Part shown: piece after piece, positions 6,069 to 60,332 of the stretch
Numbering within the stretch: the first letter of the stretch is position 1
Layout: every line of letters begins with the position of its first letter
Origin: Octopus sinensis
Taxonomy: Eukaryota
Reading direction: 5' to 3'
NCBI RefSeq assembly: GCF_006345805.1
Contig: NC_043019.1
Coordinates: 22,195,360 to 22,259,359 of the forward strand
DNA length: 64,000 nucleotides
Program-made: the position numbers and the translations under genes
Notes under the pieces: generated by a model
What the model saw: only the letters and a program-made list of their open reading frames with translations
Databases searched by the model: none
What the model was told of the DNA's origin: nothing

Positions 6069-6637
6069 AATGGAGTTAAATGCAGGTGTTATTCAAATCT
6101 TTTTACTTCCGAAATGTATCGAAGAAAACATTGGTATTATTCCAGAAGGAATAAAATGGTGTAAAACAATGCAATCTTCTCATCAGGGAAAGAAAGAAAC
6201 CAAATATATCAATAAGACATTTTAATTCCTATTTAACCCTTTCGTTACCAACCCGGCTGAAACCGGCTTTGGCTCTTCAGTACAAATGTCTGGTTTTCAA
6301 AAGTTCTGAATTAAAATCTTCCACCAAACCTTAGTCACAATTTATGTCCCTAACTCTAGCTTAATGATAACGATGTTATTTTACTTAATTCTTTGTTATA
6401 TTTAACATAATTGGAAGAAACACTGAGCATCTCAAAATAAATTCAGTAACGAAAGGGTTAAGCATTTGCAACATTCTGTTAAAATGTCTTATTGTGTGTT
6501 TAGTTTCTTTTTTTTCACTGATGAGAAGATTGTATTGTTTTACACCATTTTATTCCTTCTGAAATAATACCAATGTTTTCTTTGATACATATGTCGGAAG
6601 TATAAGAATTTGAATAACACCTGTGTTTAACTCCATT
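6069..6637. mobile_element. Fold-back element (arms 6069-6225 / 6479-6637), Penelope pseudo-LTR-like, hammerhead motif in each arm
   Basis: ~157-bp imperfect inverted repeat; CTGATGA...GATA-CATATG-TC-GGAAG at 6518-6600 (+) and counterpart 6106-6191 (-). Confidence 0.6.
6237..6457. mobile_element. piggyBac-type MITE
   Basis: TTAA TSDs (6233-6236, 6458-6461); perfect 12-bp TIR CCCTTTCGTTAC/GTAACGAAAGGG. Confidence 0.88.
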
Positions 6638-58454: not shown

Positions 58455-59630
58455 CGGGGTCTGGCTCGGGTTAATATCCCCTCAGTTATGGAGCCGGTGG
58501 GATAATCCAGAAGTGATGGGAAGAGACCAGATGATCTTACCCTCTGTCTCTGGGTAAGGGGTAGGTGCTTCGTCTGGGACGTCGCAGTCTGTGACCTTTT
58601 TTCTCCCTCCCACATCCTGGTTGCTGCGGTAAATGGAAGGGTCACAGCTTCCGTCGCCGAACGGAACAAAACCCTGGAGTAACGGAGGGGCAACAGCTAA
58701 GAGTAGGTATTGCAGCTGGATGCACAATATTAGTCATCCTATTTGTGCTAGTCATGGAGATGTCACTAAGATCAACAATCTGTGAGAAAGCTGTTACAAT
58801 GACACTATTAAGGGCTTTTATGGACATTACTGTATTATCAGAAAGTAGAGAAGCAGCAGATGGAACGTTAGAGCGGTTGGACGGGTTAATAGGATGGGTG
58901 AGAATGAAATTCAAAGTCAAGAAATCTTGAAGTGTGACATTCATGATAGGAGTCCAAAAAGAAGTGAAGTTCAGGATATGAGACGAAGAAATACCAATGG
59001 TGAAAGAACACTCTATAAAAGGTCTTGGCAGATGGTACAGTGATTTATTAAATGATAAGAAGCAAGGCAAAGAAACACGAATTAGTGGAACAGGGACTAG
59101 AGGCAATTGACAGAACAACATTACCGGGGAAATTCAAATGCTGGATACTGCAATTTGGACTGTACCCAAGGATTATATAGCTATTGTGAATGTATAAAAT
59201 AGCCTCGAATAGAGTAGAAAGGATGGAACAAAGACGCAGTGTATTGATCAGAAAATGGCTTGGTCTTCCAAAACCGCAGAATACAACTGCACTATATGGA
59301 AAACCCGTGCTGCAAGTAACAATAACATCAATCGTCGAAGAAAATAAGGACGGAAGGAAAGGCGAGGACAGTAATGGCGCTAAGGTATTCGAAAGATCAG
59401 AACATCCGAGAAAACCCTCCAGAGGTACGAACAGGGAAGAAATGGAAAGCGGAGGAAGCAGTAAACTGCGATAGGAAAGTGAAGGAATGCTAGTATAGAA
59501 GAAGCAAAAGCCGGTCTAGGGTTGCAAAATTTCAAACCATTTTGCATGAGCAGTGTAAAAGAGATGAAGGAGTAGATGAGTAGGGGCCGAAACCGGATGT
59601 GCTTCCTCCTGATGATATCCTTAGCCACTG
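58455..59630 (+). mobile_element. Internally deleted HERO-like (RLE-type) non-LTR retrotransposon
   Basis: VGIAAGCTI..ILFVLVMEM, LRAFMD, WVRMKFKVKKS, IPMVKEHSIKGLGRWY, LPGKFKCWILQFGLYPR, RKWLGLP, RTGKKWKAEEAV, KAGLG; stops and frameshifts; GC-rich structured 5' segment. Confidence 0.8.
59572..59623 (+). ncRNA. Rearranged-order hammerhead-like module 1
   Basis: GTA-GATGAG-taggggcc-GAAA-CCGgatgtgc-TTCCTC-CTGATGA-taTCCTTA. Confidence 0.45.
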
Positions 59631-59777
59631 GATCCTAAAAAGGAGTTGTTGAGTTAAAGAACCACGAAACGTGATTGGAGTTTTCCTTGTATCTTGATAC
59701 ATTTTGTGTTGCAAGACACTTGCAGATTCAGGTGTTACCAGTTGAAAGCTCAGCATACCGGATGCTAGCAAGTTTAT

Positions 59778-59828
59778 GGGGTCATCAGGAGAGAATGCGT
59801 ACCGTTTCGGGGCCTTCCTCTCGATGGC
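59778..59828 (-). ncRNA. Rearranged-order hammerhead-like module 2
   Basis: GCC-ATC-GAGAG-gaaggcccc-GAAA-CGGT-acgcatt-CTCTC-CTGATGA-cccc. Confidence 0.5.
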
Positions 59829-60332
59829 GTCATTGCGTACGGGCCTTGCTTACTGAAACGAAGCCCCGTTAGCTAGATCAACTTGATGGAGTACTATTTT
59901 GTCAATCTTACCTTAAGGCACGAACCACATTGATGGGTTTAGTCGAACATAGCAACTCCTGTGTTTACTTTTTAGTCTAGTTCTAATTCGTTCGAACTCG
60001 TGTGCGCAACCGCCAGGTAATAAGGACGTAAGCAAACCAACACTGGTTGTCAAGAGATAAACACACACTATCACTCACCCCCATACATACATACACGCGC
60101 ACGCTCAACGGGCTTTCACACACTTTCCATCTTTCAGAAGATATTGATTGGCTCATGGCTATAGTAGAAGAAACTTACTCAGTGTGCTGCGCTGTGGAAC
60201 TTAACCCAAGACCATAAGGTTGTTGGGAATCAGGTTTCTTGACCACACAGCCAAGAGTTTCAACACACGAGATTCTCGGTCCTTGAGCTCATGCGTAACG
60301 ACTACAGATTATTCTTTTCTATTCTAGGCACA

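Follow-up and report, generated by a model that had tools for sequence, protein, structure and literature searches.

Two facing retrotransposon tails in an octopus genome

The window, a 64,000-nucleotide stretch of the Octopus sinensis genome (NC_043019.1, positions 22,195,360 to 22,259,359), carries near its end two short modules that spell out the core letters of a hammerhead ribozyme in a rearranged order. Module 1 (59589-59615) lies on the plus strand and module 2 on the minus strand, and the CUGAUGA of one is 166 nt from the CUGAUGA of the other. Re-reading of the sequence confirmed the minus-strand letters of the original prediction and its spacings, 14 nt from triplet to GAAA and 16 nt from GAAA to CUGAUGA, the same as in module 1; the position predicted for the cut also stands. 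Stem I of module 2 has five of five pairs, and stem III reads A-U, C.A, G-C, G-C, U-G. The C.A had been ascribed to CpG decay, and we agree, because 23 of 29 other copies of the same repeat (family B, below) have GTC as their triplet, compared with AUC in the window. Features of the locus are listed in Table 1.

Table 1. Coordinates of features at the window locus (window positions; minus-strand intervals with the larger number first are given in reading direction)
Feature	Position	Strand	Basis or remark
Decayed family-A coding fragment, end of reverse transcriptase region	58681..59572	+	homology; fused to module 1
Module 1, family-A tail, begins at the triplet	59572..59682	+	without upstream strand
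Spacer between both tails, 22 nt	59683..59704	.	between family-A and family-B ends
Family-B tail, 5'-truncated and decayed; whole ribozyme domain and 3' tail	59705..59883	-	copy comparison
Upstream strand of helix IIa, extension	59876-59869	-	6/8 pairs; covariation
Upstream strand of helix IIa	59867-59864	-	4/4 pairs; covariation (block 59864..59876)
Hairpin H of the four-way junction	59848..59863	-	decayed here: 1 Watson-Crick, 2 G-U, 2 broken
Stem IIb partner strand; source of G10.1 in intact copies	59842..59847	-	first two pairs are A.C mismatches here
Upstream strand of the stem I-II clamp helix	59835..59841	-	partner 59800-59794; 3/7 pairs broken here
Block S: stem III 5' strand, triplet, cut, stem I 5' strand	59818..59828	-	sequence and copy comparison
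Triplet AUC of module 2	59825-59823	-	read from sequence; GUC in most copies
Predicted cut, module 2	59823/59822	-	position from hammerhead core
3-nt linker and block G: stem IIb 3' strand (59814-59809), GAAA, stem III 3' strand	59801..59817	-	
GAAA of module 2	59808-59805	-	sequence reading
Clamp 3' strand, stem I 3' strand (59793-59789), CUGAUGA, helix IIa 3' strand (59781-59778)	59778..59800	-	
CUGAUGA of module 2	59788-59782	-	sequence reading

Positions 59705-59883 belong to a high-copy repeat, with 1,891 candidates in the 2.72 Gb genome, 40 of them scored and 30 fetched. The other family-B copies (n = 29) share a common 3' end and have variable 5' cut points, and upstream of their tail there ends an open reading frame (ORF) whose profile matches R2 structures; for these reasons module 2 is the sense tail of a retrotransposon family with a restriction-like endonuclease (RLE). 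The module pattern with its fixed spacing is not a chance occurrence, because it has 2,520 matches in the genome, compared with 59 for a reversed control. A SINE with a head of its own was considered and rejected, since the DNA upstream of the window copy (59924-60058) is a piece of an unrelated old repeat family, with about 73% identity to its best relatives.

The window copy of module 2 has 82% identity to young family-B copies, which are 97.8% alike among themselves. The first two pairs of stem IIb, pair 16.2, and parts of hairpin H and of the clamp are gone, and the copy, judged by this damage, is probably dead. Among ungapped family-B copies, 11 of 26 show no break in the core or in any of helices IIa, H, IIb, III, and I. 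Module 1 is the tail of a different family, designated A. A deletion of about 1.3 kb joined it at a short microhomology to a family-A coding fragment and took away all that lay upstream of the triplet; without the upstream strand described below, module 1 cannot form IIa, H, IIb, or the clamp. From the copy comparisons, module 2 is a decayed, 5'-truncated family-B tail lying tail-to-tail with a truncated family-A tail, which is one of two alternatives offered originally, a second element of the same system inserted in that orientation. The window's own copy is an ordinary dead insertion.

The pattern GAAA..CTGANGA occurs 14 times in the whole window, compared with 2.8 expected, and inspection by eye found no hammerhead fold in the 12 matches other than the two modules. 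A separate stretch of the minus strand, at 6240-6280, has CUGAAGA, a long hairpin, and GAAA in canonical order. Positions 59740-59765 (minus strand) and their homologues, in the clade that includes families A and B, show an extra conserved hairpin and a closing helix 3' of IIa, which may mark the priming site.

A divided stem II and a four-way junction

Module 2 had been described as having no evident Watson-Crick stem II. The strand after CUGAUGA and the strand before GAAA do indeed fail to pair with each other in the window, but a stem II partner is present: both strands pair instead with an upstream strand, 59835-59876, that lies partly beyond the stretch first considered. Comparison of families A and B divides the upstream strand into four parts, each of which changes compensatorily. 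One part forms helix IIa with the strand after CUGAUGA, the next is hairpin H, the third forms IIb with the strand before GAAA, and the last forms a clamp with the strand that precedes stem I. The blocks follow the order S-G-C with crossing stems, and six helices covary. Stem II is therefore split, as A9 leads into IIa and then into hairpin H, while the upstream strand supplies the G10.1 that stands opposite C11.1. Outside one lineage described below, no stem II starts 0-2 nt after A9 on the same strand; the four-way junction is found there, and block C is interrupted. As read from these alignments, the fold is that of a type-SGC hammerhead in which a perfect four-way junction takes the place of the direct link from A9 to G10.1.

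Related loci were sought in metagenome contigs, and the best 80 of 316 were studied. GAAA..CTGANGA lies behind the ORF in sense orientation in 49 of the 80 and in antisense in one. A full structural descriptor (score of at least 55) parses 40 of the 80, with controls yielding 0/80 in antisense and 1/80 within the ORF (score 43.5). The rearranged core that had been proposed is supported, and CTGANGA, GAAA, and the crossing stems recur in these homologues. Among the remaining 40 loci, 16 have variant or decayed modules as judged by eye, 11 end less than 200 nt past the ORF with no module seen, and 13 have no module, nine of these in one divergent clade and four outside it. Deviant cores have U3 (L101 and L104) or A12 (L137, L152, and L167). 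The A12 variants may come from CpG decay, but L137 and L152 are sister copies.

The 40 parsed loci, together with one copy each of families A and B, were reduced at <80% identity to 34 non-redundant modules, which are related by descent, so that counts among them are not counts of independent events. The descriptor imposed CUGANGA, GAAA, and U16.1, and the invariance of these in parsed rows is therefore not independent; identities at 17, N7, 16.2-15.2, 11.1, and 10.1 were not imposed. Position 17 is C in 15 modules, U in 10, A in 9, and never G, in keeping with the NUH rule, and each of the four letters occurs at N7. All 34 modules have G-C as pair 16.2-15.2. Position 11.1 is C in 32 of 34, and it pairs G-C with the upstream strand in 31 of the 33 modules having a complete 3' side, while the letter that follows A9 is free.

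The junction was examined in several ways. With partners for IIa and IIb sought independently, hairpin H closes at zero offset with at least three pairs in 23 of 33 modules, compared with 16 of 180 slid controls, and nine of the ten modules that miss this closure do close in a joint, fitted parse. In a ten-row MAFFT alignment that was not fitted to structure, 82.9% of cells are paired, and in 15 of 26 pairs both sides change; none of 500 shuffles reaches either value, a test inflated by the relatedness of the rows, and slid controls on the same alignment reach at most 57.9% of cells paired. The clamp helix is 92.5% paired there, with double changes in four of its four pairs. The distance from cut to GAAA is 11-18 nt in 32 modules, that is, a short linker between stem I and stem II. 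Nested folding gives IIa, H, the clamp, and III in three loci (L105, L136, and L149; z -3.2 to -4.3), and did not recover the proposed helices for a family-B copy (L012, z -0.63) or for the window copy.

Two groups of variants deserve separate description. Loci L140, L144, and L145, a single lineage, have what looks by eye like a plain type-SGC core with a single extra U after A9; they are divergent, with the module about 450 nt behind the matched part of the ORF, and would themselves represent a eukaryote-type genomic SGC ribozyme. In loci L143, L153, and L163 the triplet is AUA, a larger upstream domain stands where hairpin H would be, and the first IIb pair is imperfect.

Rfam hammerhead models gave no match at gathering score in 20 loci, and no hammerhead appears among the 150 listed of 155 Rfam matches in the window, with E values up to 10; no match is expected, because the block order is permuted. 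We found no published precedent for two helices inserted between A9 and G10.1, a place where a viroid hammerhead reportedly tolerates a single extra nucleotide. Known alignments, according to Eckert et al. (PMC10085705), insert at most one or two nucleotides at this point. Type-SGC hammerheads as described there (HRIMA-1 and a variant; Eckert et al. 2023) share with the present fold the S-G-C order, all core nucleotides, the crossing stems I-III, a short stem I-stem II linker, and an extra helix that clamps stems I and II. Unlike in those ribozymes, block C here has a break after A9 and before G10.1, and upstream of block S lie the clamp strand and the partner for stem II, tied in by IIa and H. 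The setting differs as well, since the same text reports type-SGC ribozymes from metatranscriptomes and none from genomes of known organisms, while the present examples occur in eukaryotic genomic DNA, in a retrotransposon. Cleavage by type-SGC ribozymes is given as slow, 0.007-0.19 per min.

Element architecture and traces at the cut site

The elements have one ORF, which encodes a reverse transcriptase (RT) followed by CCHC and the restriction-like endonuclease, the arrangement that defines the R2 group. Its profile matches R2 structures 9nl3, 9dou, and 9nl2 (E 3e-14 to 1e-8). Homologues carry PF00078 and occur in lancelet and fish, and one, at 82% identity, comes from Octopus bimaculoides. 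Pfam returned no family for the C-terminal 425 amino acids of the ORF product, and no relatives were found among viral contigs. The labels of the catalytic motifs in the RLE protein are putative, and the elements are called HERO-like after the name originally given to them. The host range reported for HERO in PMC9004415 agrees with the lancelet and fish homologues. A link to HERO-like elements had been anticipated, and both modules prove to be tails in sense orientation to R2-like ORFs.

Three metagenome loci (L097, L099, and L131) have a portion of tail or module ahead of the 5' UTR, and in 11 of 35 module-bearing metagenome loci with at least 300 nt after the core, the N-terminus of a next ORF stands directly behind the tail. 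Because metagenome assembly through repeats can fuse different copies, the chromosome-scale genome was examined too. Of 30 family-B loci reached through the ORF N-terminus, 19 continue upstream as 5' UTR, tail, ribozyme, and ORF end; one of the other 11 begins a few letters before the junction, and ten stop within the 5' UTR or ORF. Nine of the 19 long copies have one common start and were counted as one event, giving 11 distinct starts, scattered from -862 to +95 relative to the cut. In family A, module and tail precede the 5' UTR in 10 of 25 N-terminal loci. Long copies run seamlessly from ORF end through ribozyme, tail, and 5' UTR into the ORF, and the junction of tail and 5' UTR is constant within each family. 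An end-to-end template jump as the source of that junction is disfavored by its invariance and by the lack of any copy that begins at it.

Among 18 loci recovered in full, 9 have both ends. Six of these nine have a unit of 3,634-3,738 nt that includes the ORF, and the other three are deletion derivatives with a unit of 984-1,440 nt; no clear target-site duplication was found in any of the nine. Variants common to both ends, on both sides of the cut, were counted in the seven insertions whose overlap exceeds 100 nt. There are 14 in L302 (best other copy 7), 8 in L298 (3), and 4 in L301 (2), two in L299, one in L303, and none in L297 or L300, the last being discordant at two recurrent sites. The 3' end of the elements is fixed but ragged, extending 0-6 nt into letters of the 5' UTR, with TCT next in 10 of 29 family-B copies. 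Such extension is expected if priming is internal on a template that continues.

The 5' UTRs of nine loci (L116, L127, L134, L136, L139, L142, L149, L268, and L316) begin 50-75 nt after the core with a common motif. Several short GGAAAGAC-like repeats occur in those 5' UTRs across distant families, and are candidates for a promoter, an IRES, or a protein-binding site.

The cut site is passed intact in 98 of the first 100 of 1,620 listed copies. It therefore does not serve, as it would in R2, as the 5' end of insertions, and none of the 11 family-B starts falls there. Two enrichment searches for junctions at the cut site produced 33 matches, from which duplicates, near-intact copies, and local deletions were dropped. 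This left 13 rare junctions in the 8 nt upstream, leading to flank, ORF, or inversion, eight of them at the cut or 1 nt before it, for p = 0.006 relative to a uniform distribution over the eight positions, with calls made by eye and a leaky control filter. A rough estimate puts junctions at the cut at about 0.4% per nt, the same as the background rate of truncation further upstream, so the excess is local only, and the clustering that these sequences suggest is weak. In L199 (the 1420-1530 region) there is a fold-back inversion centered near the cut site, and upstream of the match in L187 the middle of the ORF is joined straight to the first base past the cut.

Position 17 differs in 23 family-A copies (15 T, 6 G, 2 C), and a control A differs in 14 (3 T, 6 G, 5 C). 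The T excess at position 17 (p = 0.017) may reflect context-dependent mutation. In one sequencing run a contig begins 1 nt from the cut; it is given no weight, because contigs break at variant sites. A drop in depth at the 5' side in contigs of the run was rejected as an element end and represents an indel effect. A-to-G differences at L296:1095 and 1118 (+56 and +79 of the cut) are frequent in contigs from runs of other organisms and appear in some genomic copies; they are either subfamily variants or editing.

A proposed circular route and its rivals

We propose that a sense RNA fold, conserved between the ORF end and the tail, acts in intact copies as a hammerhead that cuts tandem transcripts into units, which are then circularized, and we assign this reading a probability of roughly 0.58. 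That intact copies are catalytic at all, a narrower claim, is quite probable. Hairpin H would stack on IIa, and stem IIb on G12.A9, so that the core would fold as in any hammerhead. Where a transcript spans two modules, each would be cut after GUH, and the resulting unit would begin with the 3' half of the ribozyme and have its ends held by 17-32 base pairs (IIa, IIb, clamp, and III, in 32 modules). The clamped ends would be sealed into a circle by the ribozyme itself or by a host tRNA ligase. The element's RT would prime at a genomic nick, at an internal site about 110-120 nt past the cut, copy back through the sealed cut and ORF, and terminate at random. Short products would be tails like those in the window, and long ones would roll past the start, so that 5' redundancy would be rebuilt in every generation; the window's two modules would be dead by-products of this cycle. 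Cutting and circularization are a likely explanation for why long insertions repeat their own tail at the front. Extending the proposal to a whole clade of autonomous R2-group LINEs, which would spread through a coding circular RNA of about 3.7 kb, cut and closed by a new hammerhead permutation whose four-way junction stands in for the A9-G10.1 link and holds both ends for ligation, with the RT priming internally and rolling around the circle and no true 5' end, is tentative, and we put it a little below even odds.

An account in which the ribozyme cuts and no covalent circle forms is unlikely, but fares best among the alternatives. The template would be an uncut tandem or read-through RNA, or a nicked unit with the RT jumping across its clamped ends, and cutting would detach the RNA from host transcripts, give translation an uncapped 5' end, or limit the RNA. 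Precedents exist in two reports, one in which unprocessed RNA is the main substrate of Penelope in vitro (PMC11167929), and one in which R2-type ribozymes release the element from co-transcripts (PMC6765202). Junctions at the cut, including the ORF-to-cut jump of L187 and the fold-back of L199, would fit jumps at a nick, and the excess of T at position 17 in family A (15/23, compared with 3/14 at the control A, p = 0.017) and the discordant ends of L300 favor the same account. However, linear read-through can only lose 5' redundancy, yet that redundancy is a common feature of two families and extends as far as 862 nt upstream of the cut; that a linear read-through template cannot renew it is our main reason for preferring circles. 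The account also sits poorly with the absence of any break at the cut in 98 of the first 100 listed copies and in all 11 family-B partial-tandem starts.

Less probable again is a non-catalytic role for the fold, that of an element recognized by the retrotransposon protein; it would be a hammerhead relic or look-alike whose core is held inactive by the four-way junction. The strand after A9 does sit in another conserved helix (IIa), the fold adjoins the priming site, a place at which RNA is bound by R2-type proteins, there are U3 and A12 variants, and no Rfam hammerhead model matches. Such an element leaves unexplained why position 17 is C, U, or A but never G, why N7 alone is free, and why the 10.1-11.1 G-C pair is kept with its G taken from the upstream strand; it offers no route for renewing 5' redundancy, and one lineage has the plain SGC form. 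The original suggestion that modules 1 and 2 make up one paired sense/antisense ribozyme cassette at a retrotransposon 3' end, to which their facing arrangement 166 nt apart, their equal spacings, and the improbability of such closeness at any given one of at least about 2,500 copies in 2.7 Gb might seem to point, is contradicted and can be set aside as very improbable, since each module is in sense orientation to its own ORF, the pair occurs together at the window's own locus alone among 90 loci, the families fall in separate clades of a protein tree (made by a quick method), module 1 has no upstream strand, and the motif is antisense in just 1/80 related loci.

The pufferfish element Zebulon (Bouneau et al. 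2003) is said to be an RLE non-LTR element that apparently transposes as a partial tandem, and we know of no ribozyme or mechanism for it. Penelope-like elements, as presented in PMC11167929, have in common with the present elements partial-tandem insertions, a hammerhead between ORF copies, and internal initiation by RT. They differ in having a telomerase-like RT with GIY-YIG, where an R2-group protein (RT and restriction-like endonuclease) is found here, and a minimal type I hammerhead in pseudo-LTRs, where the form here is a large, clamped SGC; hammerhead cutting was dispensable for Penelope-like insertion in vitro in that work. Retrozymes, according to PMC7229834, also have tandem transcripts cut by a hammerhead into units that are then circularized, steps that are only proposed here; their circles have been demonstrated and are mostly closed by tRNA ligase. 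Unlike retrozymes, which are non-coding and 170-800 nt long, the unit here codes for an RT of its own and has a length of about 3.7 kb. R2 with its 5' HDV-like ribozyme (PMC6765202) shares the R2-group protein and a self-cleaving ribozyme that would set the RNA 5' end. It has an HDV fold rather than a hammerhead, and the elements described here differ further in that the cut site is not the 5' end of insertions and the insertions are dispersed and partial-tandem.

A literature search that covered neither subscription journals nor Repbase reports found no paper on a hammerhead in tails of HERO or other RLE elements, or on this junction, and HERO is not mentioned in the available part of bioRxiv 2026.07.22.740005. 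A hammerhead variant tied to a partial-tandem life cycle is real, widespread, and apparently unreported. If the proposal is true, this fold would be a seventh natural hammerhead layout, breaking the block rule by which six possible ones were counted, and the first non-circularly permuted hammerhead to be linked to an element of a eukaryotic genome. R2-group LINEs would use a circular route like that of Penelope or retrozymes, and partial-tandem RLE elements would gain a cause that can be tested. The RNA would have ends other than the annotated 5' and 3' ends of these elements, a point relevant to gene-insertion tools made from RLE proteins, and a self-clamping ribozyme could help in circular RNA production.

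Six family-B loci (L297, L299, L304, L307, L312, and L313) are internal deletion derivatives with a unit of about 1-1.4 kb that keep the 5' UTR and ribozyme. Their deletion points are similar in pairs and not identical, and three of the six also have 5' redundancy; these would be retrozyme-like passengers. In L265 (G000:C23, ~411,700-414,200) there is a tandem array with a 90-nt unit, taken from the 3' end of family A beginning about 24 nt past the cut, with some 20 units matched, which possibly arose by repeated copying of a small circle or by slippage.
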